NCBI GenBank assembly: GCA_942492865.1
Contig: OW818650.1
Coordinates: 1,960,564 to 2,024,563 of the forward strand
DNA length: 64,000 bases
From: an uncultured Bacteroidales bacterium
GTDB taxonomy: Bacteria; Bacteroidota; Bacteroidia; Bacteroidales; VadinHA17
Direction of reading: 5' to 3'
Part shown: in pieces, positions 4,147 to 43,406 of the stretch
Layout: the number at the start of each line of letters is the position of its first letter
Numbering within the stretch: position 1 is the first letter of the stretch
Program-made: the position numbers and the translations under genes
Notes under the pieces: generated by a model
The model's database searches: none
The model's input: the letters and a program-made list of their open reading frames with translations, nothing else
What the model was told of the DNA's origin: nothing

Positions 4147-4735
4147 GGGAGATCCTGTTTAACCTCTTCCATTGAGATCCCTTGCTGCGATTACAAATTT
4201 CAACCTCTTTAACATTCATGATGAAGGCGACAGTGAGATCCCTTGTACGACTTTTCCTGACTTCTGACGCTTTCTATATTTAGTGAGGTTGAAATTTTCA
4301 ATTATTTTTACCTCATGTAAGGGAGGAATTCCCCTCCTTGGAGGGGTTAGGGGTGGGTTAAAAGTTATAATAAAAAATCCCATAAAGGATAAACAGAGAT
4401 AATACATATTGCTTGTTAAAAGAAAAAAAAGCCCAGAAAATACTCAGTTAAAAGCACTGGCAAAAAACTCAGAAAAGACATTACTATCAAATAAACACGA
4501 CTCTTGGAAAAATTAAAGAAAGAATACCTAAGAACCCACCCTGGCCCCTCCGAGGAGGGGAATCATAACTATCAAATCTCTGCCCTAATACCTATTAATT
4601 GCAACCTCTTTAAAATTCATGGTAAACATGATTGTGGGATCCCTTGCTGCGATTACAAGTTACAATCTCTTTAAAGTTCATGGGGGACACGATGATGAGA
4701 TCCCTTGCTTCGCTGCGGGATGAAGTCAGGATTTT
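4140..4735. repeat. Intergenic repeat cluster: 61-bp GAGATCCCTTGC units plus CCCCTCC/GGAGGGG hairpin motifs
   Basis: Holds about 3.5 copies of the unit also arrayed at 20.7-21.8 kb (for example 4168-4250 and 4592-4725). Hairpin motifs are CCCCTCCTTGGAGGGGTTAGGGGTGGG at 4331-4357 and its inverted form at 4536-4570. The block at 4262-4360 recurs at 20420-20515. Confidence 0.85.
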
Positions 4736-4800: not shown

Positions 4801-4842
4801 CCGTTAATCAAGCTACAGATCATTCGTTACTTATAGTACAAT

Positions 4843-5334
4843 ATGAGCGGACAGGAAATTTTTGTTATTGTTATTGTTGTTCTTCTTCTATTCGGTGCAG
4901 ATAAATTACCTGAAATGGCCAAAACATTCGGTAAGAGTATGAGGGATTTCAGGAAAGCAACAGATGAGATAAAAAGGGAAATTGAAACAAGCACAGTTGA
5001 CTTAAAGAAGGATTTGACTGAAGTTCAGGATTCTCTGAAAAAAGATGTCGCCGAACTGTCGGATAATATTCAGAATGATGTTAATGAGATGACTGATGAC
5101 ATCAAAAGGGATGTCGAGGAAATGACCGGAGAGATCAAGAAGGATGTCGATCAGATGTCAGAGGAAATTAAGAGTGAGGTCGATCAGATGTCCGAAGAAA
5201 TCAAAAAGGATGTTGACCAGATAGCTGAAAACGTCCAGAACGATCAACCTGATCCTGAAAAGAAAGAACCTTCCGATTCCGCCAAGAAAGATTTATACGA
5301 CCGTGATGAATACCGGTACGAATACACTGATTAG
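4843..5334 (+). CDS. tatA: Twin-arginine translocase TatA/E-family protein with a long acidic repeat tail
   Basis: The N-terminus IFVIVIVVLLLFGADKLPEMAKTFGKSMRDFRKA is the TatA TM helix, FG hinge and amphipathic helix. The remaining ~110 aa are D/E/K-rich with 11-aa repeats (KKDVDQMSEEI). Confidence 0.85.
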   Translation: MSGQEIFVIVIVVLLLFGADKLPEMAKTFGKSMRDFRKATDEIKREIETSTVDLKKDLTEVQDSLKKDVAELSDNIQNDVNEMTDDIKRDVEEMTGEIKKDVDQMSEEIKSEVDQMSEEIKKDVDQIAENVQNDQPDPEKKEPSDSAKKDLYDRDEYRYEYTD

Positions 5335-5364
5335 AGTTTGTCGTTCCAGGTTTTAACTTTCTTT

Positions 5365-6018
5365 ATGATAAGAACACAGGGGATAACCAAGTCTTACGGC
5401 GAATTAAAAGTACTGAAAGGGATTGACATAGAGATTAAAGAGAAAGAAGTCGTGTCAATAGTTGGTGCAAGCGGAGCCGGAAAAACCACTCTTCTTCAAA
5501 TAATAGGAACCCTGGATAAACCAGATACAGGTTCTGTTCTGTATAACGGTTCGGACATAAGCAGGATGAAAGGGAAATCAATTGCTGCATTTCGTAACAG
5601 GAATATCGGGTTTGTTTTTCAGTTTCATCAGCTGCTGCCTGAGTTCACTGCCCTTGAAAATGTATGCATACCCGCATTTATAGCTGGTAAAAGCAAAGCA
5701 GAAGCTGAGGCAAGGGCAGAAGAATTACTTGGGTTCCTTAATCTTAGTAACAGGCTTGATCATAAACCTTCTGAACTAAGCGGAGGTGAACAGCAAAGGG
5801 TAGCTGTGGCGAGGGCGCTTGTCAATAATCCCACGGTTATTCTTGCCGATGAACCGTCAGGTAACCTTGATACTGAAAACAAGAATGAACTTCATAAACT
5901 TTTCTTCAAACTGCGGGATTCATTCGGACAGACAATAATTATAGTAACACACGACCGTCAACTGGCTGATATGTCGGACCGTATACTGCAGATCAGGGAT
6001 GGGCAGATTGTAGATTAA
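5365..6018 (+). CDS. lolD: ABC transporter ATP-binding protein, LolD/FtsE-like
   Basis: Walker [10 protein letters not shown], signature [10 protein letters not shown] and Walker [12 protein letters not shown] are present. The listed 5338 start is TTG, and ATG 5365 ([12 protein letters not shown]) gives the canonical N-terminus. Confidence 0.85.
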
Positions 6019-20715: not shown

Positions 20716-21075
20716 TAATTACAACCTCTTTTACATTCATGGTGGACACGATGGTGAGATGTCATGCGGTGCATATCAATTACAACCTCTTTTAAGTTCA
20801 TGGTAAACATGATTGTGGGATCCCTTGCTGCGATTACAAATTGCAATCTCTTTAAAGTTCCTGGTGAACGCGATAATGAGATCCCTTGCTTCGTATATTA
20901 ATTGCAACCTCCTTTAACATTCATGGTGAATGCGATTATGAGATCCCTTGCTATGCATATTAATTACAACCTCTTTTAAATTCATGGTAAACATGATTGT
21001 GGGATCCCTTGCTGCGATTACAAATTGCAATCTCTTTAAAGTTCCTGGTGAACGCGATAATGAGATCCCTTGCTG
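20716..21075 (+). repeat. Tandem array of six ~61-bp units (consensus about GAGATCCCTTGCTGCGATTACAAnTTGCAACCTCTTTAAAGTTCATGGTGAACGCGATAAT)
   Basis: The CATGGT/CCTGGT landmark recurs at 20738, 20799, 20860, 20922, 20983 and 21044 (period 61-62). Units 2-3 are repeated as units 5-6. Confidence 0.9.
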
Positions 21076-21300
21076 CGCTGCGGGATGACATGCGCTTTTT
21101 GGGGTTATGGGGTGAAAAAGTGGCGATCCGCTACATAGTTCTTTATTGAATGATCGTTCCGGATCGCCACTTTTTCACCCTCTCAACCACCTGTGCAGCT
21201 GTCATTTCGAAGCGATAGCGAGAAATCTCACTATAACAGGCAGGACTTTTTAAGTGAACCTCTTCAACATTCATGGTGAACACGACAGTGAGATCCCTTG
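20857..21300 (+). repeat. Copy 1 of a ~444-bp near-identical direct repeat
   Basis: The same string recurs at 21391-21835 with only about three differences that I can see (ataatgag/ataataag, cctcctttaac/cctcttttaac, caccctctc/cacccctctc). Confidence 0.9.
21062..21229 (+). repeat. Nested double-hairpin element (copy A)
   Basis: Outer imperfect inverted repeat GAGATCCCTTGCTGCGCTGCGGGATGACA (21062-21090) pairs with TGTCATTTCGAAGCGATAGCGAGAAATCTC (21200-21229). Inner perfect 20-bp inverted repeat GGTGAAAAAGTGGCGATCCG (21111-21130) pairs with CGGATCGCCACTTTTTCACC (21160-21179). Confidence 0.9.
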
Positions 21301-21390
21301 CTTCGCATATTAATTGCATCCTCCTTTAACATTCATTGTTAAGGCGACAGTGAGATTCCAATCCTGGTTTCATATTACGACCTCCTTAAA

Positions 21391-21835
21391 GTTCCTGGTG
21401 AACGCGATAATAAGATCCCTTGCTTCGTATATTAATTGCAACCTCTTTTAACATTCATGGTGAATGCGATTATGAGATCCCTTGCTATGCATATTAATTA
21501 CAACCTCTTTTAAATTCATGGTAAACATGATTGTGGGATCCCTTGCTGCGATTACAAATTGCAATCTCTTTAAAGTTCCTGGTGAACGCGATAATGAGAT
21601 CCCTTGCTGCGCTGCGGGATGACATGCGCTTTTTGGGGTTATGGGGTGAAAAAGTGGCGATCCGCTACATAGTTCTTTATTGAATGATCGTTCCGGATCG
21701 CCACTTTTTCACCCCTCTCAACCACCTGTGCAGCTGTCATTTCGAAGCGATAGCGAGAAATCTCACTATAACAGGCAGGACTTTTTAAGTGAACCTCTTC
21801 AACATTCATGGTGAACACGACAGTGAGATCCCTTG
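21391..21835 (+). repeat. Copy 2 of the ~444-bp near-identical direct repeat
   Basis: See copy 1. The offset is 534-535 bp. Confidence 0.9.
21596..21765 (+). repeat. Nested double-hairpin element (copy B, inside duplicate 2)
   Basis: Same sequence as copy A apart from one extra C after the inner stem. Confidence 0.9.
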
Positions 21836-22145
21836 TACGACTTTTCTCTTCGTTGGCGCCAATTTGAAATTGGTGCCCTGCATTTCAAATAATTTTTTGC
21901 TCCTTATTCTATCCCCGGAGACTGAATGTAACTGTGCAAATAGGAACTGCAATACGTTAAAAATAAAAGGCATCAATTGCAAATTGGCGCCAGAAGTGTA
22001 TTAGATCCCTTGCTGCTCTGTGGGTTGACATCAATTTTTGGGTAGCTTTAATGGTTTTTAATCTGCATTTAATTTATATTTAATCATCTTTTAATAAAGA
22101 AATTTTATCATTGTATTTTGAAAAACCTCCTTTAAACAAAATGTT

Positions 22146-25298: not shown

Positions 25299-25453
25299 CA
25301 ATCCGTTTATAATCAGCGTTCTCCGCGAGTCATTTGTTCAAACCTGAACAAAATTTTTACCACGGATTCCACAGATGCCACAGACAGAATCATGGGTTTC
25401 ATTATTTGAAAAAATCCGTGCTCTACCCGTGTTCTCCGCGCAATCCGTGGTAA
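25299..25453. repeat. AATCCGTGG-type hairpin/direct-repeat element in the adhesin 5' region
   Basis: A 12-bp perfect inverted repeat: TTACCACGGATT (25357-25368) and AATCCGTGGTAA (25442-25453). GTTCTCCGCG occurs twice (25318, 25431) and AATCCGT four times. Confidence 0.7.
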
Positions 25454-25811
25454 AAAAAATAATTATCATCAGAGATCCGGAATTCTGTAACTTCACAGTT
25501 CAAAGTTGTGAATCCCGGGTTAGAATCGTTAGAATACTTTATACAAGTTTTTTAACAGGCCGGGGGAGCATATTTCATGAAAAAACTGATTTGTAAAAAA
25601 ACTCCGGTTTTCAAAAAATATTGTTTACGGATGAATTAACTTAATTCGTCAAAAAATTTCTTATATTTTCCACAAAACAATTACTTTCGGATTTGCTCAG
25701 TAAGTGTGACTGAGGGGGCGAAAGCATGCCATGTCCCGATCATCAATTCGATCTATTAAAGAGATAACTCGTTGAATTTCATAGTATCGTAAAAAGCCAT
25801 TCAGCAAATTC

Positions 25812-28800
25812 ATGAAAAGGTCATTATTTCAGAAGTACATTCTTCTGTGTTTGCTTAACGTCTTTTCTTTACTTCTTTCGGCTCAGATACCGACCCCATT
25901 TACAGTTACAGGTAGTGGCTCATATTGCGTGGGGTCTGGTGGATTAGCTGTCGGTCTTGATAATTCTCAAGCAGATGTCCTCTATACCCTTTACCGGGAC
26001 GGAACAGCTCAACCGGATCCTGTTCCCGGTAGTGGTTCATCTATCTCCTTCGGAAACCAACTTTTCGGGACCTATACCGTGATCGGAGTAAATGGGGATG
26101 GAACTTCCGGAATGAATGGCAGTGCTGTTATAATTGAAAATCCTATTCCTCCCGCTCCCTCAGGCAGCGCAATACAGACCTTCTGCTCGGGCGCTTTGCC
26201 GACGGTGACCAATCTCACCGTAACCGGAACTGGCATCAGATGGTATGATGCCTTAACCGGTGGAAACCTTCTTACTTCTTCAGCAGCGCTGGTCAACGGA
26301 TCACATTATTTTGCAAGTCAGACTGTGGATGGATGCGAAAGTAATCTCAGGCTCGATGTAACCGCAGTTGTAAATACAACGCCTCCTGCTCCGACTGGGG
26401 TCTCATCACAAACTTTCTGCTCGGGCGCTTTGCCGACGGTGACCAATCTCGCCGTAACCGGAACTGGCATCAGATGGTATGATGCCTTAACCGGGGGAAA
26501 CCTTCTTGCTTCCTCAACAGCGCTGGTCAACGGATCTCATTATTTTGCAAGTCAGACTGTGGATGGATGCGAAAGTAATCTCAGGCTCGATATAACTGCA
26601 ATTGTAAACACAACTCCTTCCGCTCCCGCTGGCAGCGCAATACAGACCTTCTGCTCGGGCGCTTTGCCGACGGTGACCAATCTCGCCGCAACAGGAACTG
26701 GTATCAGATGGTATGATGCCTTAACCGGTGGAAACCTTCTTGCTTCTTCTACAGCGCTGGTCAACGGATCTCATTATTTTGCAAGTCAGACTGTGGATGG
26801 ATGCGAAAGTAATCTCAGGCTCGATATAACTGCAATTGTAAACACAACTCCTTCCGCTCCCGCTGGCAGCGCAATACAGACCTTCTGCTCGGGCGCTTTG
26901 CCGACGGTGACCAATCTCGCCGCAACAGGAACTGGTATCAGATGGTATGATGCCTTAACCGGTGGAAACCTTCTTGCTTCTTCTACAGCGCTGGTCAACG
27001 GAACTCATTATTTTGCAAGCCAGACTGTGGATGGATGCGAAAGTAATCTCAGGCTCGATGTAACTGCAATTGTAAACACAACTCCTTCCGCTCCCGCAGG
27101 CAGCGCAACACAAACCTTCTGCTCGGGCGCTTTGCCGACGGTGACCAATCTCACCGTAACCGGAACTGGCATCAGATGGTATGATGCCTTAACCGGTGGA
27201 AACCTTCTTACTTCTTCAGCAGCGCTGGTCAACGGATCTCATTATTTTGCAAGCCAGACTGTGGATGGATGCGAAAGTAATCTCAGGCTCGATGTAACCG
27301 CAGTTGTAAATACAACGCCTCCCGCCCCCACTGGAATCTCAACACAGACCTTCTGCTCGGGCGCTTTGCCGACAGTGACCAATCTCGCCGCAACAGGAAC
27401 TGGCATCAGATGGTATGATGCCTTAACCGGGGGAAACCTTCTTGCTTCTTCTACAGCGCTGGTCAACGGAAGTCACTATTTTGCAAGCCAGACTGTGGAT
27501 GGATGCGAAAGTAATCTCAGGCTCGATGTAACTGCAATTGTAAACACAACTCCTTCCGCTCCCGCTGGCAGCGCAATACAGACCTTCTGCTCGGGCGCTT
27601 TGCCGACGGTGACCAATATCGCCGCAACAGGAACTGGTATCAGATGGTATGATGCCTTAACCGGTGGAAACCTTCTTACTTCTTCTACAGCGCTGGTCAA
27701 CGGATCACATTATTTTGCAAGTCAGACTGTGGATGGATGCGAAAGTAATCTCAGGCTCGATATAACTGCAATTGTAAACACAACTCCTTCCGCTCCCGCA
27801 GGCAGCGCAACACAAACCTTCTGCTCGGGCGCTTTGCCGACGGTGACCAATCTCACCGTAACCGGAACTGGCATCAGATGGTATGATGCCTTAACCGGTG
27901 GAAACCTTCTTACTTCTTCAGCAGCGCTGGTCAACGGATCTCATTATTTTGCAAGCCAGACTGTGGATGGATGCGAAAGTAATCTCAGGCTCGATGTAAC
28001 CGCAGTTGTAAATACAACGCCTCCCGCCCCCACTGGAATCTCAACACAGACCTTCTGCTCGGGCGCTTTGCCGACAGTGACCAATCTCGCCGCAACAGGA
28101 ACTAGTATCAGATGGTATGATGCCTTAACCGGGGGAAACCTTCTTGCTTCTTCTACAGCGCTGGTCAACGGATCACATTATTTTGCAAGTCAGACTGTGG
28201 ATGGATGCGAAAGTAATCTCAGGCTCGATGTAACCGCAGTTGTAAATACAACGCCTCCTGCTCCGACTGGGGTCTCATCACAAACTTTCTGCTCGGGCGC
28301 TTTGCCGACGGTGACCAATCTCACCGTAACCGGAACTGGCATCAGATGGTATGATGCCTTAACCGGTGGAAACCTTCTTACTTCTTCAGCAGCGCTGGTC
28401 AACGGAAGTCACTATTTTGCAGGCCAGACTGTGGATGGATGCGAAAGTAATCTCAGGCTCGATGTAACCGCAGTTGTAAATACAACGCCTCCCGCCCCCA
28501 CTGGAATCTCAACACAGACCTTCTGCTCGGGCGCTTTGCCGACAGTGACCAATCTCGCCGCAACAGGAACTAGTATCAGATGGTATGATGCCTTAACCGG
28601 GGGAAACCTTCTTGCTTCTTCTACAGCGCTGGTCAACGGATCACATTATTTTGCAAGTCAGACTGTGAATGGATGCGAAAGTTCATCAAGGCTCAATATA
28701 ACTGCAGTTGTTAACATCACCCCGGTTATTCCCAATCAGACAACAGCAATTTTAACAGGAACAACATTTACCATAACACCTGAAGGAGCCGGTGTCCCGG

Positions 28801-31514
28801 CAGGAACTACTTATACATGGACTGCACCTGTTTATATTGGCGGAGTGACAGGTGGTTCGGCCCAAACTGTACCCCAGCCGAATATTACAGGGACCCTGAG
28901 TATCCCCTCAGGAGCAGGGACCGCATCCTATACCGTAACACCTTCAAACGGATCATGTCCCGGAGCATCATTTACTGTCATAGTTATCGTCACTTCAACT
29001 TGTGTGAGTGCTACAATTTCCTCCCAGCCGGCAGACAGGAATATGTGTATGATCTCAGGAACATCATCATTTACGATTGGCGTAAACGGAACAACTCCTG
29101 TTGTATATCAATGGCAATACAATGACAGCGGCACATGGAGAAATGTTAGTAATGGCACTCCTTCCGGAGCTTCCTACACCGGATCAACGGGCGCCACTCT
29201 TGGTGTTTCAGGTATTACCCAGGCCGGAAGTCGGCAGTACCGCTGCCTGGTTTCCAATTGCGGCATCGCGACAAGTATTGCTTCAAATCCGGCAACGCTG
29301 ACAGTGGATCCGTTACCATCCGCACCTACCATAGGATCGGTTTTGCATCCTACATGTATAAATCCTACAGGTACGATCAATATCTCGGCTCCGACCGGAA
29401 CAGGATTTACTTATAGCATCAATGGGACCAACTATACAAATACAACCGGAGTATTTTCCAATGTCAGTGCAGGGAATTACACTGTCACTGCAAGAAGCGC
29501 ATCCGGATGTATTTCTCCCACAACCGCAGTGACAGTGAATGCTCAGCCGGCAACACCTCCGGCCCCAACAGTTACCCTCGTACAACCAACCTGTAATACT
29601 CCGACAGGTTCAGTAACCGTTACAGCTCCTACTGGTATCGGAATGACCTACAGTATCAACAATACTACTTATACAAACACTACCGGGGTATTCACCGCAG
29701 TAACAAGCGGTACATATACTGTTACCGCAAGAAACACTGCAGGATGTACATCAGCAGGAACAATCGTTAATATCCAGGCACAACCTTTAATACCGACAGT
29801 GACAGTAACCAATCCTGCAGCGGTCTGTTCTCCATCAACAGTCAATATAACTGCTCCTGCTGTTACGACCGGTTCAACCTCGAATCTGACTTACACCTAC
29901 TGGACTAATGCTGCGGCTACAGCAACGTATTCCACTCCAACGACAGCAAGTTCAGGCACTTATTATATTAAGGGAACTACAAGCGCAGGATGTTACGATG
30001 TTGCACCGGTGATTGTAACAGTCCTGCAAACGCCGACAGCCAATGCAGGGACCGGAGGGAATGAATGTGATCTCAACTTTCAGCTTAACGCAATATCAAG
30101 TGCAGGTACAGGCACCTGGACAATGACATCAGGTCCCGGCGCAGCATCGTTCAGTCCGAATGAAAACACACCAAATGCAATAGTTACTGTTTCGGTTTAC
30201 GGCACTTATACTTTCAGATGGACCGAAGTGAATGGTATCTGTTCAGGAAGTAACAGCATTACTGTTAACTTTTACCAGCAACCTGTTGCAAATGCAGGAA
30301 CAGGAGGCAATAATTGCGGACTTCAGTTCAATCTCAACGGGTCGATGAACGTGGGTACAGGAGTATGGACCAGAGTAAGCGGTACAGGCACTGTTTTATT
30401 CTCACCATCGGATACTTCTCCAAACGCTATAGTAACAGTACCTGGTTTTGGTGCATACAGGTTCAGGTGGACTGTTACCAATGGAACATGTTCAAACAGT
30501 TCGGATGTTAATGTTACTTTTGTCCAGCAGCCTGCAGCAAATGCAGGCTCAGGAGGTGAAGAATGCGACCTTGATCATATATTAAATGCTACACCAGGAA
30601 TTACAGGGGGGAAATGGAGTAAGATCAGCGGTCCGGGCGATGCAATTTTCAGCAATATTTCAAGCTATAATGCGACTGTAAGCGTTAGCAAAACAGGTAC
30701 TTATGAATTTGCCTGGACAATTGAAAACAGTTCGTGCAGCTCAATTGATTTCATAACAGTAGTATTCCATGAACTCCCTCAAATTTCAGCGGGCCCGGAT
30801 ACTGTAATTTGCGAAGATGGATCAGCCCAGCTTCACGCATCCGGCAATGGCAGCTTCATTTGGGAGCCTTCAGCCTCGCTCAGCAATCCTGCTCTGGTCA
30901 ATCCCGTTGCAACTCCTGTGACCACAACAGTATATTCCGTTACCCTTACCGATCAGAACGGATGTAAGAACAAAGACGATGTTAAAGTTGAGGTTTTGAC
31001 AAAGCCTGTTGCTGATGCAGGCTCTGACATAATACTGGAGTACCTTTTCAAAACATCCCTGGATGCAACAGCTTCTGATAACGGTTCCGGTACATGGTCA
31101 TTGATAACGGGCTCGGGGATTTTTAAAGATGCAACTGAAGAAAATACAGAAATAACAGGACTTTCACCCGGAATTAATGAATTCCGGTGGACTGTCACAA
31201 ACGGAGTATGCCCTGTTGTAAGCGATGACGTAACGGTAACTGTAAAGAACCTGGAAATTCCGACATTAATAACCCCTGATCACGGGGATGATTACAATGA
31301 ATATTTTATAATCAGGGGAATTGAAACTCTAGGAAAAACCTCTTTAATAATTTTTGACAGGAGAGGTGTTAAGGTTTATGAGAACAACAACTACAACAAT
31401 GATTGGAATGGGGTGGATTATAATAATAAGGACCTTCCGGAGGATACCTATTTTTATAATATCAAATCAGAGAATGTAAAACCGGTCAGTGGCTTTATTG
31501 TAATAAAAAGATGA
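25812..31514 (+). CDS. Giant T9SS-secreted cell-surface repeat protein (type-B / CHU_C C-terminal sorting domain)
   Basis: Signal peptide, then 11 x 78-aa Cys-bracketed repeats, an Ig-like segment (VYQWQYNDSGTWRNV), two CxxPTG repeats (HPTCINPTGTINISAPTG) and five ANAG.GG.EC modules. The C-terminus IPTLITPDHGDDYNEYFIIRGIE...DRRGVKVYE...WNGVD...LPEDTYFY matches the gliding-motility-associated C-terminal domain. Confidence 0.9.
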   Translation: MKRSLFQKYILLCLLNVFSLLLSAQIPTPFTVTGSGSYCVGSGGLAVGLDNSQADVLYTLYRDGTAQPDPVPGSGSSISFGNQLFGTYTVIGVNGDGTSGMNGSAVIIENPIPPAPSGSAIQTFCSGALPTVTNLTVTGTGIRWYDALTGGNLLTSSAALVNGSHYFASQTVDGCESNLRLDVTAVVNTTPPAPTGVSSQTFCSGALPTVTNLAVTGTGIRWYDALTGGNLLASSTALVNGSHYFASQTVDGCESNLRLDITAIVNTTPSAPAGSAIQTFCSGALPTVTNLAATGTGIRWYDALTGGNLLASSTALVNGSHYFASQTVDGCESNLRLDITAIVNTTPSAPAGSAIQTFCSGALPTVTNLAATGTGIRWYDALTGGNLLASSTALVNGTHYFASQTVDGCESNLRLDVTAIVNTTPSAPAGSATQTFCSGALPTVTNLTVTGTGIRWYDALTGGNLLTSSAALVNGSHYFASQTVDGCESNLRLDVTAVVNTTPPAPTGISTQTFCSGALPTVTNLAATGTGIRWYDALTGGNLLASSTALVNGSHYFASQTVDGCESNLRLDVTAIVNTTPSAPAGSAIQTFCSGALPTVTNIAATGTGIRWYDALTGGNLLTSSTALVNGSHYFASQTVDGCESNLRLDITAIVNTTPSAPAGSATQTFCSGALPTVTNLTVTGTGIRWYDALTGGNLLTSSAALVNGSHYFASQTVDGCESNLRLDVTAVVNTTPPAPTGISTQTFCSGALPTVTNLAATGTSIRWYDALTGGNLLASSTALVNGSHYFASQTVDGCESNLRLDVTAVVNTTPPAPTGVSSQTFCSGALPTVTNLTVTGTGIRWYDALTGGNLLTSSAALVNGSHYFAGQTVDGCESNLRLDVTAVVNTTPPAPTGISTQTFCSGALPTVTNLAATGTSIRWYDALTGGNLLASSTALVNGSHYFASQTVNGCESSSRLNITAVVNITPVIPNQTTAILTGTTFTITPEGAGVPAGTTYTWTAPVYIGGVTGGSAQTVPQPNITGTLSIPSGAGTASYTVTPSNGSCPGASFTVIVIVTSTCVSATISSQPADRNMCMISGTSSFTIGVNGTTPVVYQWQYNDSGTWRNVSNGTPSGASYTGSTGATLGVSGITQAGSRQYRCLVSNCGIATSIASNPATLTVDPLPSAPTIGSVLHPTCINPTGTINISAPTGTGFTYSINGTNYTNTTGVFSNVSAGNYTVTARSASGCISPTTAVTVNAQPATPPAPTVTLVQPTCNTPTGSVTVTAPTGIGMTYSINNTTYTNTTGVFTAVTSGTYTVTARNTAGCTSAGTIVNIQAQPLIPTVTVTNPAAVCSPSTVNITAPAVTTGSTSNLTYTYWTNAAATATYSTPTTASSGTYYIKGTTSAGCYDVAPVIVTVLQTPTANAGTGGNECDLNFQLNAISSAGTGTWTMTSGPGAASFSPNENTPNAIVTVSVYGTYTFRWTEVNGICSGSNSITVNFYQQPVANAGTGGNNCGLQFNLNGSMNVGTGVWTRVSGTGTVLFSPSDTSPNAIVTVPGFGAYRFRWTVTNGTCSNSSDVNVTFVQQPAANAGSGGEECDLDHILNATPGITGGKWSKISGPGDAIFSNISSYNATVSVSKTGTYEFAWTIENSSCSSIDFITVVFHELPQISAGPDTVICEDGSAQLHASGNGSFIWEPSASLSNPALVNPVATPVTTTVYSVTLTDQNGCKNKDDVKVEVLTKPVADAGSDIILEYLFKTSLDATASDNGSGTWSLITGSGIFKDATEENTEITGLSPGINEFRWTVTNGVCPVVSDDVTVTVKNLEIPTLITPDHGDDYNEYFIIRGIETLGKTSLIIFDRRGVKVYENNNYNNDWNGVDYNNKDLPEDTYFYNIKSENVKPVSGFIVIKR
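26148..28721 (+). repeat. Eleven tandem 234-bp (78-codon) repeats inside the adhesin gene
   Basis: The period is exactly 234 bp: antisense ORF ends fall at 26296, 26530 ... 28636, spaced by 234. Repeats 3 and 4 are essentially identical. The pair 5-6 recurs as 8-9, and repeat 6 recurs again as repeat 11. Confidence 0.95.
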
Positions 31515-32443
31515 GACTGAACTTAGATATTCTGTTTCTTAAGGTTTTACCCTTGCTGCTGATCCCTTTCAGCCTTTCAGGACAATTAACCCCTGTTTCA
31601 AATCAATATATTCTTAATCCCATTGTGATCAATCCTGCCCACGCAGGCAGCAACGGAGTATTGAACATTGCAGCATTTTACCGGAAACAATGGATTGGAG
31701 TTGCAGGATCTCCTGAAACAATGACACTGGCTATTGACGGACCATTACTTGATTCAAAGCTTGGCCTGGGTTTGCTGATTTCGTCGGATAAAACCGGGGT
31801 TACTAAAGAATCACGCTTAAATACGATTTATGCATACAGAATTAAACGAGGGGAAGGAATGCTTTCCTTTGGACTTGGAGCAGGTTTAATAGCTACCAAT
31901 ACAGCCTGGTCTGACCTGGTTATCGTAGATAAGGAAGACAGTCATTATCTTTCTGATTCACGTGTTTTCATAGTGCCTGACTTCAATTTTGGAGTTAATT
32001 ACAGATATCATAATTATTTTGCCGCATTTTCTATACCTAAGTTATTAGGGTATAGTTTTGATTTTAATAAAAATAAATATGCCATTCAGGTAAATCCTGA
32101 ACAGTACAATATCTTATTCAATACGGGTTATCGTTTCCCGCTTTCTTCAAATACCAGGTTCCTTCCTTCCGTACTTGTTTCATTTTCTCCGGGAAATAAG
32201 ATTGTGTATGATATCAATGCTCATTTCAATTTTTCTGACAGGTTCTGGACCGGGTTTTCTTACCGGAACAACCGATCTATAGCCGGTTTGATGCAATTTT
32301 CCGTAAATAATAAGTTAAAGTTGGCATACATTTACGATTTTGATTTCGAGGATCTGTCCAGGTATAGCAATGGATCGCATGAGATAATGTTCAGGTATGA
32401 ATTCAGGTATAAATTGGATGCGGTGAATCCATTGAATTTTTAG
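31511..32443 (+). CDS. PorP/SprF-family type IX secretion system membrane protein
   Basis: Signature NQYILNPIVINPAHAGSNGVLNIAAFYRKQWIG and a beta-barrel-like remainder. The start overlaps the adhesin stop (ATGA). Confidence 0.9.
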   Translation: MRLNLDILFLKVLPLLLIPFSLSGQLTPVSNQYILNPIVINPAHAGSNGVLNIAAFYRKQWIGVAGSPETMTLAIDGPLLDSKLGLGLLISSDKTGVTKESRLNTIYAYRIKRGEGMLSFGLGAGLIATNTAWSDLVIVDKEDSHYLSDSRVFIVPDFNFGVNYRYHNYFAAFSIPKLLGYSFDFNKNKYAIQVNPEQYNILFNTGYRFPLSSNTRFLPSVLVSFSPGNKIVYDINAHFNFSDRFWTGFSYRNNRSIAGLMQFSVNNKLKLAYIYDFDFEDLSRYSNGSHEIMFRYEFRYKLDAVNPLNF

Positions 32444-32460: not shown

Positions 32461-34605
32461 ATGAACTGTAGAAAATATTTTTACCTGTTTATATCATTGA
32501 TACTGCCAGGGCTGTCTTTCTCACAGTCTGATGCCTATACAATTAAAAAGGTTTCTTTCAGCTCAGATCGTTATGACGAATTCTCACCTGTATTTTATAA
32601 CAACGGCATAGTATTTTGCACTAACAGTCCTCAGAGTATATATAATTATACAGATGGTTCGGGTAATGGTCTGTTTAAAATGAAGTATATTGATACTACC
32701 AGAACTTATAAGCGTCAGGAGGTAGTTTTATTTTCCAGGGATCTGACATCCATCCTTAACGACGGACCGGCCACATTCAGCAGTAGTGGAGATACTATCT
32801 ACTACTCCAGAAATCTTAATGTGGATCGCAGAACCAGCCAGCTAATGGGATTAAGGAACAAGCTTGGCATTTTCAGCGCTGTTCGTGCAGGTGAAAATTG
32901 GGTTAATATACGTGAATTCAGATTTAACAGTGAATGGTATAATGTCACTACCCCCTGTCTTGCCCATGACGGGCAAAGATTATATTTTTCATCAGACAAA
33001 CCTGGCGGATACGGTGGTTTCGATATTTATTACAGCCAATGGAAAAAAGGAAACTGGGATGATCCGGTAAATCTGGGGCCAAATGTAAATACAAAAGGCA
33101 ACGAGTCCTATCCCTTTATAAATACAGCCGGAGAACTATTCTTTTCATCAGATGGCCATAAAGGGCTTGGAGGTAAAGATATTTTTGTAACAAAACAGTA
33201 TTTATCCGGATGGTATCCGCCTGTGAGGCTCGATGCCCCCGTTAATTCCGAGTATGATGATTTTGGCCTTGTAACCGATCTCCTGGCAAACCAGGGCTAT
33301 TTTTCTTCCGGAATGGGAAAAACCATTGATATTTACCAGTTTAAATCAAACAGATTCCAGTTCTGGTTCAGCGGGCTTCAGAAAGCTAACATGTATTGTT
33401 TTTCGGTATCAGACACCGGGTCAATCAGGGTTGACACAAACAGGCTCGAGTATGTATGGGATCTCGGGGATGGATCAAAAACGGTCGGAAACAAAGCGAA
33501 GCATTGTTTTAATGGACCGGGACATTATAATATAAGCCTTGATATTGTTGATAAGACAACAGGGTTACTGTTTTTCCGTAAGCTCACATATGATCTTGAG
33601 GTAGTAGATATAGACCAGCCGTTTATCAATTCTGTGGATATTGCAGTCAAAGGTGAGTCGATTGCATTTGATGGTCTGAAGTCAAAATGCCCTGGTTATA
33701 CCATAACAGGTTTTTATTGGGATTTCGGAGAAGGGTCGTACGGGACCGGGGAAAATGTAAATCACAAATTTGCAAATGCGGGGGAATATGAGGTCAGCAT
33801 GGGTCTTGTTCTTAAATCTGATGCAAATGGTCATTTTGAAAAAAGAGTCGTTTCCAGGAAAATAAGAGTTTTAAATGATATTCAGGAAAAAGCTTCATAC
33901 ACAACGGAGATTTCAGAAAACCAGAACCCTGCTGATATCTATGATAATAAAAATATCAAGATCAAAGGATATTATTCTGCAGGGGCAGAACTCCTTAAAG
34001 AATCAGTATTCCAGGTGGTAATCTTTTCTTCGCAGGCCAGGATATCTTCCACCAGTTCATTTACCGGGAAAATACCGGAGAATTATAAAGTGAAGGAGAT
34101 CTTTGATCTTGATCAGGGGCTGTATAGTTATGTTGTTGATCAGCAAATGAACCTCATGTTTGCTTATCCTGCTTACAATGACATGATTGCAGCGGGCTTT
34201 AATGATACCAGAATAAGGCTTTATACACTCAGGGATCCTGCAGAAAAGGAATTATATAATCTGATTAATAAATACGGTAACCTGTGCGATTCTTATTTTG
34301 ATTCAGGAAATAAGCTTTTAACAAATGGAATCTTAATGCTTAATCAGATAGCGATTTTAATGGTTAAATATCCCGGAATAACCATAGAAATCGGAGTCCA
34401 CTCAGATATGCAGGGAGATCCGGCAAGAAACAAATGGATCTCCAGATCAAGGGCCCAGATGATGGTAAATTACCTGGTAGGAACAGGTATGGACGTTAAA
34501 CGCCTTAAAGTAACAGGTTATGGCGGAACCAGGCCGGTCGTTGTGAATACTAAGGAAGATGACATGAACTTCAACGAAAGAGTTGATTTTTCAATATCGA
34601 ATTAA
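32461..34605 (+). CDS. OmpA-family protein with TolB-like/WD40-like repeats and a PKD-like domain
   Basis: Repeated ..S.DG..LYFSSD.PGG.GG.DIY motifs, PKD-like WDLGDGS and WDFGEGS, and a C-terminal OmpA_C pattern (IEIGVHSD..GDPARNKWISRSRAQMMVNYLV..G). Confidence 0.8.
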   Translation: MNCRKYFYLFISLILPGLSFSQSDAYTIKKVSFSSDRYDEFSPVFYNNGIVFCTNSPQSIYNYTDGSGNGLFKMKYIDTTRTYKRQEVVLFSRDLTSILNDGPATFSSSGDTIYYSRNLNVDRRTSQLMGLRNKLGIFSAVRAGENWVNIREFRFNSEWYNVTTPCLAHDGQRLYFSSDKPGGYGGFDIYYSQWKKGNWDDPVNLGPNVNTKGNESYPFINTAGELFFSSDGHKGLGGKDIFVTKQYLSGWYPPVRLDAPVNSEYDDFGLVTDLLANQGYFSSGMGKTIDIYQFKSNRFQFWFSGLQKANMYCFSVSDTGSIRVDTNRLEYVWDLGDGSKTVGNKAKHCFNGPGHYNISLDIVDKTTGLLFFRKLTYDLEVVDIDQPFINSVDIAVKGESIAFDGLKSKCPGYTITGFYWDFGEGSYGTGENVNHKFANAGEYEVSMGLVLKSDANGHFEKRVVSRKIRVLNDIQEKASYTTEISENQNPADIYDNKNIKIKGYYSAGAELLKESVFQVVIFSSQARISSTSSFTGKIPENYKVKEIFDLDQGLYSYVVDQQMNLMFAYPAYNDMIAAGFNDTRIRLYTLRDPAEKELYNLINKYGNLCDSYFDSGNKLLTNGILMLNQIAILMVKYPGITIEIGVHSDMQGDPARNKWISRSRAQMMVNYLVGTGMDVKRLKVTGYGGTRPVVVNTKEDDMNFNERVDFSISN

Positions 34606-34996: not shown

Positions 34997-35815
34997 ATGA
35001 AATCATATCGAATTAATATATTCCTCCTGTTAGCAATATTTCTATCGGTAAGTTCCTGCGTAAGCAAAAAAAAACTTACATATCTTCAGTATAGCCAGAT
35101 GGAAGCTCCTGATTTACCTCTGAAGGATTTAAGGATATCAATCACTCCTTCTGCATATAAGCTGATGCCTTACGATGTGCTTTTTATAAGGGTAATAACT
35201 CCCGATCCACAATGGTCAGAAATTTTTAATGTTATGGCAACCGGACAGGGAGGCGCAATGACGACTGAAAGCGCATCTTTACTGGGCTATCCAGTGAATG
35301 ATGATGGTAATATTGAAATTCCTTATGTGGGCAAGGTAGAGGTAGGTGGGAAAACGCTGGCTGAAGTGAAGGTCCATTTGGATACGATTTTTAAGGGTTA
35401 TCTTAATAATGCCTCCATTACAGTTCGTCTGGTCAATAATTACATAAGTGTTATAGGGGAAGTTACAACACCCGGGAGGTATCCCATGACAAAAGACCGC
35501 CTTAATGTGTTTGAAGCAATTTCCCTCGCGGGTGACCTTAGTTTATTCAGCAACCGGCAGAAAGTGCAGTTAATAAGACAGACTCCCTATGGACCTGTTG
35601 TGAAGCAATTCTCCCTGAGCGACAGGAGTATCCTGACATCTGAATATTACTATGTTATGCCAAATGATATTATCTATGCTGAACCTATGAGGCGAAGGTC
35701 ATTCGATATGAATTCATCTTTTACACAGATCTTACTTGGCTCCTTCACAACCATTCTTACGGCTATTACGACAATATTCGTTATATTGAATTATAATAGT
35801 GACAATGCGCAGTAG
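34997..35815 (+). CDS. wza: Polysaccharide export outer-membrane protein (Wza family)
   Basis: Lipoprotein signal (LSVSSCVS), Poly_export motif YKLMPYDVLFIRV, and SLBB-like PGRYPMTKDRLNVFEAISLAGD. Confidence 0.85.
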   Translation: MKSYRINIFLLLAIFLSVSSCVSKKKLTYLQYSQMEAPDLPLKDLRISITPSAYKLMPYDVLFIRVITPDPQWSEIFNVMATGQGGAMTTESASLLGYPVNDDGNIEIPYVGKVEVGGKTLAEVKVHLDTIFKGYLNNASITVRLVNNYISVIGEVTTPGRYPMTKDRLNVFEAISLAGDLSLFSNRQKVQLIRQTPYGPVVKQFSLSDRSILTSEYYYVMPNDIIYAEPMRRRSFDMNSSFTQILLGSFTTILTAITTIFVILNYNSDNAQ

Positions 35816-35850
35816 TTTGCTTCGAAACCCATATTCTTTTTTACAGACAA

Positions 35851-38187
35851 ATGAAAAATTCTGAAAATCAACAAAAGGAGCAACATGCAAAACAGATAGG
35901 GATAGATCCGCATGTGGTTATGTCGCTTATTCTGAAAAACTGGTATTATCTTGTTATTGGTGTTATTGTGGCTTTGCTCGGCGCCAGATTTTATATAGGT
36001 CATACGTTACCTTCCTATCTGTCAACTACAACTATCCTGATAAATGAAACGGAGGAAAGAACTCTTGCAGGAAATGAAGAACTTCTGCAGGGATTAGGCC
36101 TGCCTGGCGGGATGAGGAACATTGATAATCAGATTATGATCCTCACTTCAAGAGCATTGACGGAAAAAGCGCTGAAAGAACTACCATTCGAAATTGAGTT
36201 TTACCATAAGACGTTCCGTAATGAACTTCCTATTTACCCTGAATTACCGGTGAAGATTCTGTTTCATACTGAAAATCCGCTTCCCAGGGATGTTGAATTT
36301 TCAATCTTATATTCAGGCAATAATAAATTTATTTTACAATCTGAATCGGAATATTTTGAACTAACTAAAACTTCCTCTTTTGGGGAAACTATAGAGGCTC
36401 CTGGTGGAAGTTTTACAATAGAATGTCGCGACGAACCATGGATGAATGCCAACAGGGAGGAAAAACTTTATTTTGTTATTTACAGCCCGTCCAGATTAGC
36501 ATCTTACTATAACAGCAGGCTCAATGTGGAACATTTATCACGGACAGGTTCAATTTTGAGTGTCAGTTTGCAGGGAACGAACAGGAATAAAGATGTTGAT
36601 TTTCTCAATAAGCTTGCAGAGGTCTTTCAGGCATCATCACTTGATAAGAAAAATATAGAAGCAATCAGAAGGATCCAGTTTATTGATGAGCAGCTTATCG
36701 GGATTTCAGATTCACTCTCAATTACGGAGAGCAAGTTACAGCAGTTTCGTTCATCAAATAAGGTGATGGACCTCTCGGCACAGGGACAGGCCATTATACA
36801 ACAGGTAACCATACTTGAGAATGAAAAGGCACGATTAAGTCTTGAATCGAATTATTATGATTACCTGGCCGATTACCTCGCTAAAGATGTAACCGGGGAA
36901 CTGCCAATTATTCCGATAACCATGGGCATCACTGATCCCGGACTGACCAGGCTGGTTACAGAACTTGCTGATTTACAAAGCCAGCTCTCTGCAAGGGGAT
37001 CAATAGAGATGAATCCGGTTCAGAATCTGATTGTTCAAAAGGTGAATAGTACCAAGAGCGCTCTCCTTGAAACGCTCAATGGATTAAGAAGGGCAAACAA
37101 CCTTGCCAGGAATGAAAACCAGAATCAGATCAACAGGATAAATGCCCAGGCATCCAGACTACCTGTAACAGAAAGACAACTTTTGGGCATTGAACGGAAA
37201 TTCAGGTTAAATGATGAGATGTACACCTTTCTTCTTGAGACCAGGGCTGAACAGCAAATGCAAAAAGCATCAAATATGGCTGACTGTGAGATAATTGATC
37301 CTGCAAATATTGAGTATAGTTACATTGTCTCACCAAATCGTAACCTGGTAAATTTTGCAGCAATATTTCTTGGCTCAGGAATTCCTTTTGTAATTATCTT
37401 TCTTGCATTCGTTTTTAATAAAAAGCTTAAAAGAGACGATATCGCAAATATTACAGATACGCCTGTAATTGGAAATATTCCGCACAATGCCGGAAAAATA
37501 AATGCAGTTATCTTTGAAAACCCGGGTTCATCTATTGCTGAAGCCTACAGGTTGTTGAGGACCAGAATGCAGTTTTTTACCAAAGAGGCTGTATCCCCGG
37601 TGATTCTTGTTACCTCATCAATGCCAGGGGAAGGTAAAACATTTACTGCAATCAACCTGGCCTCTGTGTACAGCATAATGGATAAAAAGACGGTGCTTGT
37701 GGGTTTTGACCTGAGAAAACCAAAAATATTCAGGGATTTTAACCTTAATAATGATAAGGGAGTTTCGACATTCCTGATTGGTAAAGATAATCTGCAGGAT
37801 ATTATACAAAAGACTGCTTACCCGAATTTATATGTTATACCTGCGGGACCTGTTCCTCCAAACCCGTCAGAATTGACTGAGCTTGAGAAAACAGAAGAAT
37901 TGCTAAAATTGCTAAAAGAAAAATTTGATTATATTATTATTGACTCATCACCGATAGGACTGGTATCAGACCCATTCCGCATAGCAGCACTTGCTGATAC
38001 ATGCCTTATTGTGGTTAGGCCCGGATTGACACAGCGTGATATGTTCGAAAACACAATGATTGAAATAAGTAGTAACAACACCCCTGGAGTTGGTCTGATA
38101 ATTAACGATATCCAGGCAGGTGATAAGCATTACAATTACAGCGAAAAGTACGGCTACACCAGTGAAAAAAGAAAAACAGAAAAATAA
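35851..38187 (+). CDS. wzc: Polysaccharide co-polymerase / tyrosine autokinase (Wzc/GumC-type)
   Basis: Wzz-like N-terminal TM, periplasmic coiled coil and a second TM. The C-terminal P-loop kinase has SSMPGEGKTFTAINLA and IIIDSSPIG, with a Tyr-containing tail (HYNYSEKYGY). Confidence 0.9.
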   Translation: MKNSENQQKEQHAKQIGIDPHVVMSLILKNWYYLVIGVIVALLGARFYIGHTLPSYLSTTTILINETEERTLAGNEELLQGLGLPGGMRNIDNQIMILTSRALTEKALKELPFEIEFYHKTFRNELPIYPELPVKILFHTENPLPRDVEFSILYSGNNKFILQSESEYFELTKTSSFGETIEAPGGSFTIECRDEPWMNANREEKLYFVIYSPSRLASYYNSRLNVEHLSRTGSILSVSLQGTNRNKDVDFLNKLAEVFQASSLDKKNIEAIRRIQFIDEQLIGISDSLSITESKLQQFRSSNKVMDLSAQGQAIIQQVTILENEKARLSLESNYYDYLADYLAKDVTGELPIIPITMGITDPGLTRLVTELADLQSQLSARGSIEMNPVQNLIVQKVNSTKSALLETLNGLRRANNLARNENQNQINRINAQASRLPVTERQLLGIERKFRLNDEMYTFLLETRAEQQMQKASNMADCEIIDPANIEYSYIVSPNRNLVNFAAIFLGSGIPFVIIFLAFVFNKKLKRDDIANITDTPVIGNIPHNAGKINAVIFENPGSSIAEAYRLLRTRMQFFTKEAVSPVILVTSSMPGEGKTFTAINLASVYSIMDKKTVLVGFDLRKPKIFRDFNLNNDKGVSTFLIGKDNLQDIIQKTAYPNLYVIPAGPVPPNPSELTELEKTEELLKLLKEKFDYIIIDSSPIGLVSDPFRIAALADTCLIVVRPGLTQRDMFENTMIEISSNNTPGVGLIINDIQAGDKHYNYSEKYGYTSEKRKTEK

Positions 38188-42199: not shown

Positions 42200-43406
42200 T
42201 CTCAAAGCTGTTAATGATTCTTTCGGAGATGAGCTTTCGGAAGCAGTTAACCGTGTCCTTAAGTCAGGATGGTATCTGCTTGGAAATGAAGTAGGCGATT
42301 TCGAAAAAAGCTATGGGTCTTATATAGGATCAAAGCATTGCATTGGTGTGGCAAATGGTCTGGATGCACTCAGGCTCATTTTCAGAGCCTATATGGAATT
42401 GGAAATGATGAAGGAAGGAGATGAAATCATTGTTCCGGCGAATACTTATATAGCATCCATTCTTGCAATAACTGAAAACCGGTTAAAACCCGTCCTGGTT
42501 GAGCCGCAAATAAATAACTATAATATAGACGTTTCATTAATTGAAAAGAGCATTACTGCCCGCACACGTGCAATTATGGTCGTTCATCTTTACGGCAGGA
42601 CCTGCTGGTCTGAAAACCTGGAGGATATTGCTGCCAGATACAATCTGAAGATAATAGAGGATAATGCACAAGCGGCAGGAGCGATGACGATGGCTCAGAG
42701 CTCAGAGCGCAGAGCGCAGGAGAAGAAGGCACAGGGCACAGGGCACAGAGCTCAGGAGGAAATGGCTCAGAGCTCAGAGCTCAGGGCTCAGGGCAAGAAA
42801 GAGATGACCCTGAAACGAACTGGTTCATTGGGAGATGCAGCCGGTCACAGTTTTTATCCGGGGAAAAATTTAGGTGCCATAGGAGATGGAGGCGGAGTCA
42901 CTACTGATGATGATGAACTTGCTGCGGTTGTAAGATCGCTGGCGAACTATGGTTCTTCAAAGAAGTATGTATTCGAATATCAGGGATTGAATTCAAGGCT
43001 TGACGAGATACAGGCAGCAGCATTAAATGTAAAGTTGCGCAGGCTTGACCATGATAACCAGCGCCGCCGTGAAATCGCTAAATGTTATATTGAAAATATA
43101 AGGAATCAGGGAATAATTTTACCTGAAAATCCAACCTTTGACCTTTCTCATGTATGGCATCTTTTTGTTGTCCGCTCACTGTTCAGAGAACGTTTGCAGA
43201 ATTATCTTATTGAGAACGGGATACAAACGCTGATCCACTACCCTGTACCGCCTCATCAACAACAGGCATATAAGGAGTGGAATGATTTAATATTCCCATT
43301 AACTGAAAAAATTCACCGGGAAGTATTGAGTATGCCGATAAGCCAGGTAATGAATGATAATGAAATGGAGCAGGTTATTAATATTATCAATAAATTCTCC
43401 GTTTAG
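42183..43406 (+). CDS. DegT/DnrJ/EryC1/StrS aminotransferase (FdtB/QdtB-like) carrying a ~39-codon repeat-derived insertion
   Basis: MIKFLDLKAVNDSF.., IIEDNAQAAGA, GSLGDAAGHSFYPGKNLGAIGDGG and ANYGSSKKY..GLNSRLDEIQAA. The listed start 42081 lies inside the previous gene, so ATG 42183 is used. Confidence 0.85.
   Translation: MIKFLDLKAVNDSFGDELSEAVNRVLKSGWYLLGNEVGDFEKSYGSYIGSKHCIGVANGLDALRLIFRAYMELEMMKEGDEIIVPANTYIASILAITENRLKPVLVEPQINNYNIDVSLIEKSITARTRAIMVVHLYGRTCWSENLEDIAARYNLKIIEDNAQAAGAMTMAQSSERRAQEKKAQGTGHRAQEEMAQSSELRAQGKKEMTLKRTGSLGDAAGHSFYPGKNLGAIGDGGGVTTDDDELAAVVRSLANYGSSKKYVFEYQGLNSRLDEIQAAALNVKLRRLDHDNQRRREIAKCYIENIRNQGIILPENPTFDLSHVWHLFVVRSLFRERLQNYLIENGIQTLIHYPVPPHQQQAYKEWNDLIFPLTEKIHREVLSMPISQVMNDNEMEQVINIINKFSV
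42690..42806 (+). repeat. Heptamer-tract element embedded in-frame in the aminotransferase CDS
   Basis: ATGGCTCAGA GCTCAGA GCGCAGA GCGCAGG ... GGCACAG GGCACAG GGCACAG AGCTCAG ... ATGGCTCAGA GCTCAGA GCTCAGG GCTCAGG. It translates as MAQSSERRAQEKKAQGTGHRAQEEMAQSSELRAQGKKE. Confidence 0.85.

Follow-up and report, generated by a model that had tools for sequence, protein, structure and literature searches.

How do eleven copies of one protein-coding unit stay nearly alike within a single gene, and does the process that keeps them alike also change their number and order? This question is raised by a gene in a 64,000-nucleotide stretch of contig OW818650.1 (GenBank assembly GCA_942492865.1, positions 1,960,564 to 2,024,563), which comes from an uncultured Bacteroidales bacterium of the VadinHA17 lineage and is designated here as the window; coordinates are window positions. 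The gene encodes a 1900-amino acid (aa) protein predicted to be a type IX secretion system (T9SS) substrate, and it contains a tandem array of 234-bp units. A preliminary description of the window, made from the letters alone, had proposed that ongoing recombination in this array reassorts short cassettes and varies the length or antigenicity of a surface fibre. We analysed the array, its homologues and its neighbours, and consider it probable that the array is the stalk of an outer-membrane-anchored surface fibre whose units are reshuffled by recombination. The two features at the centre of the argument are as follows.

25812–31514, + strand: open reading frame (ORF) of the 1900-aa surface fibre protein, a predicted type-B T9SS substrate (ORF list and translation; Pfam Ig_7 eleven times, K319L-like PKD and CHU_C)
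26148–28721, + strand: array of 11 x 234 bp, corresponding to 11 predicted Ig_7 stalk domains, aa 113–970 (Tandem Repeats Finder (TRF), unit table, Pfam Ig_7 in 11 stretches with an expectation value (E) of 2e-97, AlphaFold2 model of units 5–7)

The repeat is genuine, well outside what chance would produce. TRF returned a single tandem array at 26148–28716, with a score of 4142 and 11.0 copies of period 234 (91% matches, 0% indels), and the 2574 bp of the array run in frame and without a frameshift inside the single ORF. Cutting at 234 bp yielded 11 units of 78 codons arranged head-to-tail, and the sequence flanking the array is unrelated to them (approximately 170–185 of 234 positions differ). 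The exact period and the conserved cysteine pair that had been described for each unit were both borne out: Cys13 and Cys63 (TFCSG...GCES) are present in 11/11 units, the second motif reading NGCES in unit 11 and DGCES in the others, and both cysteines are invariant in 25/25 aligned homologue rows. The units vary at 48 of 234 nucleotide (nt) positions, 22 synonymous and 26 non-synonymous, with 34 being parsimony-informative, and their mean pairwise aa identity is 0.90. Pairwise nt differences range from 0 (unit 5 vs unit 8) to 39 (unit 10 vs unit 11), with values of 3–6 among units 3, 4 and 7. The statement that units 3 and 4 are essentially identical holds as near-identity, which unit 7 shares; units 5 and 8 are an exact pair (0/234). 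Unit 11 has extra changes at its 3' end (D61N, N66S, L67S, D70N and T77I), and edge units of arrays commonly carry such changes. Two other candidate properties were rejected. Identity plotted against unit offset had no preferred offset, which argues against a higher-order multi-unit periodicity, and the GC content at third codon positions (GC3) is 0.444 in the array, equal to that of housekeeping genes (0.44), which argues against GC-biased gene conversion. The overall GC content of the array is 51% vs 41% for the window, and the surplus lies at second codon positions (GC2), i.e., in the amino-acid composition.

How the units came to resemble one another can be read from long exact tracts revealed by an offset scan.

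26517–26768, + strand: exact 252-bp tract, identical to 26751–27002, one unit downstream
27061–27401, + strand: exact 341-bp tract, first copy, identical to 27763–28103, three units apart
27763–28103, + strand: exact 341-bp tract, second copy
27955–28199, + strand: exact 245-bp tract, identical to 28423–28667, two units apart

All of these tracts disregard unit boundaries. The 341-bp tract takes in the whole of unit 5/8, flanked by the end of unit 4/7 on one side and by 84 nt from the start of unit 6/9 on the other, and the 245-bp tract runs from unit 8/10 into unit 9/11. The reported recurrence of block 5–6 as block 8–9 is correct as one exact 341-bp tract and fails for the complete units, since 11 nt separate unit 6 from unit 9. 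Likewise, unit 6 does not recur as unit 11, from which it differs at 21 nt; it is unit 9 that recurs in unit 11, through the 245-bp tract.

The preliminary description had confined the differences between units to three cassettes, one of which is located at the unit junction. At the aa level this is mostly right, with 12 of the 15 variable positions of units 1–10 lying in the cassettes and positions 29, 52 and 57 outside them. At the nt level it is right only in part: cassette codons, which form 32% of the unit, hold 25 of 37 variable sites (an enrichment whose p-value is optimistic, because the codon set was chosen post hoc), a fourth variable patch, mostly synonymous, occupies unit nt 154–171, and further synonymous sites are scattered. 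The V/I alternatives of the last strand (positions 71 and 74) and the linker that follows (PPAPTG or PSAPAG) always co-occur across the unit boundary, indicating that the junction cassette is one linked block. When biallelic informative sites were paired, 247 of 465 pairs were incompatible by the four-gamete test. In a test modelled on the pairwise homoplasy index (PHI-like), the incompatibility of neighbouring sites was 0.354, compared with 0.531 ± 0.026 in 10,000 permutations of site order (p<1e-4), and the Hudson–Kaplan minimum number of recombination events (Rm) within 234 bp was 6–8. Taken with the tracts of 245–341 bp, these results show repeated and recent copying of segments from one unit to another. 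They strongly indicate the recombination within the gene, or gene conversion, that had been proposed for the units, and the same tests show that the cassettes reassort between units.

We then compared the array with units extracted from eight related proteins by profile hidden Markov model. Amino-acid identity was 90% inside the window array and 64–67% between it and any other array. The nearest neighbour of all 11 window units lay in the same protein, with no unit-by-unit correspondence to P0005, the closest full-length homologue (62% identity), and this lack of positional orthology adds to the evidence for recombination. The window array is under concerted evolution. Two homologues with 5 units, P0010 and P0011, do exhibit positional orthology with each other, and their within-array identity is low (approximately 55%). 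Outside the array the proteins correspond closely: a 930-aa C-terminal module, sorting domain included, is 62–66% identical end-to-end in P0005, P0010, P0011, P0016, P0004 and P0007, and the domain at the protein start is also common to P0005, P0010, P0011 and P0016. A comparison of copy number among relatives, which the preliminary description had suggested, gave 11 Ig_7 copies in the window protein, 11 in P0005, 5 in P0010, 5 in P0011 and 2 in P0016, and copy number accounts for the entire length difference between these otherwise collinear orthologues. At the P0005 locus (L001), the three genes of the operon recur in the same order, with a 234-bp array of 10.8 copies and 77% identity.

In a ranking of 118 homologues with three or more units by within-array identity, the window protein takes third place, the median being 0.56. 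The leaders are P0078 (Pedobacter psychrodurus, partial; 0.95) and P0044 (0.94), which have 16 and 14 units, respectively, some pairs being identical. These two proteins resemble the window protein in having tandem Ig_7 arrays of 14–16 units with 94–95% within-array identity and differ from it in flanking architecture and repeat consensus, indicating that homogenised Ig_7 arrays arose independently several times. Such arrays are recurrent but uncommon. A broader survey of periscope-like T9SS proteins could well start from P0078 and P0044. In the larger homologues P0004, P0002 and P0007, two Ig_7 arrays are split by a duplicated copy of the first 212–438 aa of the C-terminal module, in a higher-order duplication that joins an array to the beginning of this module.

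Does the reassortment of cassettes serve variation as such? Selection was estimated by the Nei–Gojobori method over all unit pairs, as the proportions of synonymous (pS) and non-synonymous (pN) sites that differ.

All codons: pS 0.156, pN 0.054, pN/pS 0.35 (0.33 for units 1–10)
Cassette codons: pS 0.224, pN 0.132, pN/pS 0.59
Remaining codons: pS 0.094, pN 0.010, pN/pS 0.11

The antigenic variation that had been proposed found no support in these values: pN/pS is below 1 everywhere, even in the cassettes, the cassette substitutions are conservative (V/I, S/T/A and L/I), and the positions that vary among units coincide with the most variable ones in the family (entropy 1.37 vs 0.85, p=0.02). The pattern is one of relaxed purifying selection on loops and linkers together with linked old haplotypes, and not of diversifying selection. 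These data bear on the possibility that programmed or selected reassortment of the three cassettes changes the epitopes of the fibre and evades phage or host under diversifying selection. The concentration of variable sites (25/37 in 32% of the unit) and the fact that cassettes do reassort are compatible with it, and T9SS adhesins such as SprB and RemA are considered likely phage receptors, in which repeat variation has been suspected (PMC9804748). However, pS is raised in the cassettes as well (0.224 vs 0.094), and a raised pS with pN/pS below 1 speaks for linked haplotypes that are older and for weak constraint rather than for positive selection; the changes are conservative at positions variable in the whole family; and no recombinase, silent donor cassettes or convincing inverton was found near the fibre gene. 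We therefore regard selected epitope reassortment as very unlikely, and return to reshuffling of stalk units by recombination, for which the remainder of the protein and its neighbours provide the context.

The fibre protein, which is present in NCBI as an exact match on a 4,571,452-bp contig, and the two genes downstream comprise the following features.

25812–25883, + strand: predicted Sec signal peptide, aa 1–24, MKRSLFQKYILLCLLNVFSLLLSA, with cleavage predicted before Q (n-, h- and c-regions judged by eye from the translation; cleavage before Gln follows the Bacteroidota pattern)
25884–26147, + strand: N-terminal, presumably distal, Ig (immunoglobulin)-like domain, aa 25–112 (AlphaFold2 all-beta sandwich with a predicted local distance difference test (pLDDT) score of 83; module also in homologues)
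28722–31253, + strand: non-homogenised, conserved C-terminal portion with Ig-like/PKD-like domains, aa 971–1814 (alignment with homologues)
31254–31511, + strand: type-B T9SS C-terminal sorting domain, aa 1815–1900 (PF13585 CHU_C, E 7.6e-19; TIGR04131)
31511–32443, + strand: PorP/SprF-family outer-membrane protein, the presumed cognate shuttle or anchor (PF11751, E 1e-68; TIGR03519, 241.6 bits vs a cut-off of 90.55)
32461–34605, + strand: PorE-like protein with PD40 beta-propeller, PKD and OmpA peptidoglycan-binding domains (Pfam PD40, PKD_4 and OmpA)

The assignment of the protein to the T9SS substrates, already made in the preliminary description, agrees with the match of its extreme C-terminus to TIGR04131, the T9SS type-B sorting domain (48.9 bits vs a cut-off of 35). 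The repeat corresponds to Ig_7 (PF19081, 'Ig-like domain CHU_C associated'; E 2e-97 over 11 units), and the internal repeats of the C-terminal module are only 40–58% identical. The domain at aa 25–112 had no Pfam match and gave only generic Ig-like matches in Foldseek; a distinct adhesive head was rejected, because the fold of this domain is that of an ordinary Ig-like sandwich and resembles no particular adhesin. A 102-aa ORF in another frame (28817–29125, + strand), located inside the fibre gene past the array, is almost certainly spurious.

Downstream, the stop codon of the fibre gene and the start of the PorP/SprF gene share 4 nt (31511–31514), and the PorE-like gene begins 17 nt after the PorP/SprF gene. 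This overlap and spacing suggest that the three genes form a translationally coupled operon. The third gene scores 198 bits against NF052230 (T9SS_PorE), below the cut-off of 600 and over a partial alignment (profile positions 144–420), and it is thus designated as PorE-like and not as an equivalog. Type-B substrates are held at the surface by PorP-like proteins, with PorE providing the link to peptidoglycan (PMC9143113), and they rely on cognate, genetically linked PorP/SprF shuttles (PMC12618676). Given the sorting domain and these neighbours, the fibre protein is probably located on the cell surface and anchored through the PorP- and PorE-like proteins.

The stalk was modelled by AlphaFold2 from units 5–7, the input alignment comprising 25 three-unit stretches taken from homologues. 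The result had a mean pLDDT of 93.9 and an identical all-beta pattern in each unit. In a Foldseek search of the PDB with the three-unit model, fragments of GhpA took ranks 1–6 and 8 (E approximately 6e-8 to 3e-6), with multi-Ig proteins of eukaryotes coming next. GhpA is a heptameric T9SS substrate composed of Ig-like beads, encoded beside the PorP homologue ghpB and the PorE homologue ghpC (bioRxiv 10.1101/2024.01.29.577165); its structures (PDB 9flp, 9flu-9fly and 9g8b) are from Aureispira sp. CCB-QB1. It was also the sole PDB sequence match to the fibre protein in phmmer (E 1.3e-69). The strongest stretches of this match lie between residues 1399–1900 of the query and 4833–5898 of GhpA, the sorting domain included, and the array aligned weakly but additively with GhpA 3021–3949.

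If units are still being exchanged, members of the same species might differ in their arrays. Conspecific contigs were obtained from ENA and Logan through the PorE-like cluster only, and three of them, L011, L012 and L013, are 96–98% identical to the window at the nt level. L012 is syntenic on both sides of the array, inside which it has a 100-N scaffold gap; L011 starts within the last unit, and L013 starts further downstream. The array had been called a classic site of assembly collapse, and short-read metagenome-assembled genomes (MAGs) of the same species do have their gap (L012) or their start (L011) in it. A scan of genome contigs found no conspecific (best match, 58% identical over a short segment), a scan of metagenome contigs gave at most 56% identity, and a search with the N-terminal domain returned a single unrelated fragment of 55% identity. 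MutS of the window matches that of an ENA bin at 100% identity, its named relatives (83–85% identity) are labelled 'Bacteroidales bacterium', and the 4,571,452-bp contig is taken as a closed genome of this uncultured lineage. In L012 the N-terminal domain is 99.1% identical to that of the window, and the 600 nt past the array are 97% identical. Compared over 169 sites, the first L012 unit has 27 differences from window unit 1 and is closest to window unit 6 (12 differences), the last differs from window unit 11 at 27 of 234 sites, and the two L012 units differ from each other at only 11 of 169 sites, where both abut the gap in short-read contig ends and may be chimeric consensus. Read in this way, the array appears to diverge several-fold faster than its flanks and to be homogenised within each strain, and gain and loss of units may still be ongoing in the population.

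The failure of conspecific short-read assemblies exactly at the array raises the question of whether its fine structure in the window is itself an artefact of assembly or polishing, with a true copy number that differs or units that are simpler, and with a mosaic produced by mis-mapped reads. Exact tracts of up to 341 bp exceed the resolution of short reads. On the other hand, a single contig of 4.57 Mb implies long reads; the 234-bp period is perfect, with an intact ORF and no indel or frameshift over 2574 bp; the array of the homologue at L001 has an equal period and copy number; and variant sites form coherent haplotype blocks. An artefact is, in our judgement, extremely improbable.

The static alternative carries somewhat more weight. 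It holds that an old burst of duplication and conversion produced the array, that its 11 copies and their order are now fixed by selection for fibre length, and that the mosaic is a relic of past events. P0005 shares the operon and, at 62% identity, also has exactly 11 units; length can matter, as the hooks formed by GhpA, a protein of 5898 aa, are uniform at 240 ± 4 nm (bioRxiv 10.1101/2024.01.29.577165); and synonymous divergence among the units is not negligible (pS 0.14–0.16). Against it, the identity of units 5 and 8 and the exact tracts of 245–341 bp imply very recent events, the unit content of the conspecific MAG differs beside flanks that are 97–99% identical, and orthologues with 2 and 5 units exist. 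We consider a static array unlikely.

Some observations also weigh against a stalk that recombination keeps reshuffling. The closest full-length homologue has exactly 11 units, homogenised independently of those in the window, and this equality is more consistent with copy-neutral conversion or selection for a fixed length than with free expansion and contraction. The conspecific arrays, from which ongoing unit gain and loss would be read, are broken by a gap or a contig start, and the limits given above for the L012 units and for the cassette enrichment belong here as well. On the structural side, one unit alone gave no significant match to GhpA, and the proposed homology of the stalk beads to the GhpA stem repeats draws on summed weak matches and on the predicted fold. 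The rod-like shape of the stalk and an intradomain Cys13–Cys63 disulfide are likewise suggested by secondary structure and conservation.

With these points in mind, a reshuffled stalk still accounts best for the data, and it would work as follows. The fibre protein would be exported by Sec and recognised by the T9SS through its type-B C-terminal domain, and the 930-aa C-terminal module would dock via this domain onto the PorP-like barrel and the PorE-like peptidoglycan-binding anchor. Anchoring at the C-terminus would leave the N-terminus pointing outward. Each 234-bp unit would encode one bead, a 78-aa Ig_7 beta-sandwich, and the beads would form a stalk between the small distal Ig-like domain and the conserved C-terminal base module; at the GhpA scale of 240 nm per 5898 aa, the 858 aa of the array would contribute approximately 35 nm of stalk. 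Tandem repeats are known to be unstable in bacteria, and units that share such long exact tracts would lend themselves to RecA-dependent exchange between sister copies that have misaligned and to template switching during replication. Non-reciprocal events (gene conversion) would generate the mosaic cassettes and keep the units about 90% alike, and unequal events would occasionally add or remove whole units, always in frame because 234 = 78 x 3. The net outcome would be concerted evolution of the stalk and differences in stalk length between lineages, the cassettes being weakly constrained loop and linker positions rather than a dedicated variation system.

The surroundings of the fibre gene contain several further features. 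Its upstream neighbours, an amidohydrolase gene and an MscS gene, are on the opposite strand. The 594-bp intergenic region upstream of the fibre gene has a perfect 15-nt inverted repeat, TTTTTACCACGGATT at 25354–25368 and AATCCGTGGTAAAAA at 25442–25456, which is the outer part of imperfect 35-nt arms and whose perfect halves lie 73 nt apart. Candidate identities for it are a terminator, a REP (repetitive extragenic palindromic)-like element and a small invertible segment. An upstream invertible promoter or switch was considered and found no support, as the only other pairs were weak and AT-rich. Sigma-70 and terminator scans upstream of the gene were at chance level with a scan tool that does not cover Bacteroidota promoters, and an Rfam search over the whole window gave no family at the gathering score. 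Tandem repeats of approximately 61 nt with the core GAGATCCCTTGCT are located in non-coding sequence at 20717–21612, 22002–22014 and 4174–4709; the core has 14 copies, all on the + strand, vs 0.13 expected by chance. These repeats lie in a 184-nt and an approximately 534-bp higher-order duplication (20834–21133 is 97% identical to 21368–21667), have no Rfam match and are also present in the conspecific contig L012. Synteny with L011 and L012 (96–98% identity) ends abruptly at 34830, just past the PorE-like gene. Beyond this point, a polysaccharide export and biosynthesis locus (Poly_export, a GNVR/AAA_31 tyrosine kinase and others; 34997–38187 and beyond) is replaced by other genes in the relatives, the only match to them being a 73%-identical DegT-like segment at 42321–43099, indicating that the surface-polysaccharide locus is strain-variable.

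For T9SS type-B surface fibres, the array offers a clean and quantifiable case of concerted evolution and of variation in stalk length. It reveals no new mechanism, as recombination-driven change of fibre length is already well known in bacteria, and fibrillar adhesins anchored by CHU_C have been catalogued in Bacteroidetes (PMC8286594). What it adds is the extension of the periscope idea, developed mainly from Gram-positive pathogens, to environmental Bacteroidota, and its link to the GhpABC architecture. T9SS adhesin genes are very repetitive, and short reads may miss variation in their repeat number (PMC9804748). Conspecific short-read MAGs break or have a gap exactly at the array, which suggests that metagenome catalogues systematically truncate or overlook genes of this kind and that copy number can be trusted from long reads only.

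Three known systems resemble this locus in different respects. Its closest solved relative is GhpABC, with which it shares the identical gene order, an Ig-repeat T9SS substrate followed by a PorP homologue and a PorE homologue; the C-terminal 500 aa or so align, and the beads match GhpA stem fragments by fold. The two differ in that the window protein has 1900 aa and GhpA 5898, and in that the N-terminal hook module of approximately 1400 aa has no counterpart, only an Ig-like domain of approximately 88 aa preceding the window array. Moreover, the 52 stem repeats of GhpA are 'slightly varying' and not homogenised, and the heptamer is a feature of GhpA, whereas the window locus is known from its genes. 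One could go further and view the locus as a compact grappling-hook relative, a multimeric, PorP/PorE-anchored appendage of Ig beads whose reach is tuned in evolutionary real time by recombination in the Ig_7 array. This is a speculative and, as a whole, rather unlikely reading; if true, length variation of the periscope type would be general to T9SS type-B fibres of uncultured Bacteroidales and possibly driven by contact with phage or prey.

The SprB/SprF system of Flavobacterium johnsoniae likewise combines a large, repetitive surface protein having a type-B domain with a PorP/SprF-family gene that follows it, and SprF binds SprB (PMC9143113). However, the window protein has no SprB-repeat Pfam domain and is about 3.4 times shorter than SprB (approximately 6500 aa); its gene has no sprC or sprD upstream, and a PorE-like gene is present in the window. 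The window fibre is not a SprB orthologue.

The third comparison is with periscope proteins, such as SasG, Rib/alpha C and Sgo_0707 (SHIRT), which are defined operationally by repeats of more than 50 aa that are at least 80% identical (Whelan et al. 2021, PMC8201768). The 78-aa, 90% identical units of the window protein fall within this definition. As in periscope proteins, the repeats are predicted folded domains, with a distal domain on their N-terminal side and a cell anchor on their C-terminal side, their high DNA identity makes them substrates for recombination, and their number differs among homologues whose remaining sequence is collinear. The described examples are mostly Gram-positive LPXTG proteins, with few from proteobacteria, and the strings 'Bacteroid' and 'Flavobacter' are absent from the main text of PMC8201768. 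In the window protein, the anchor consists instead of a T9SS type-B domain with PorP- and PorE-like proteins, the repeat domain is Ig_7, and the length variation seen is that between orthologues (approximately 62% identity). Judged from its sequence, the protein that carries the array is therefore a potential periscope protein by the operational definition and appears periscope-like at the between-species level.

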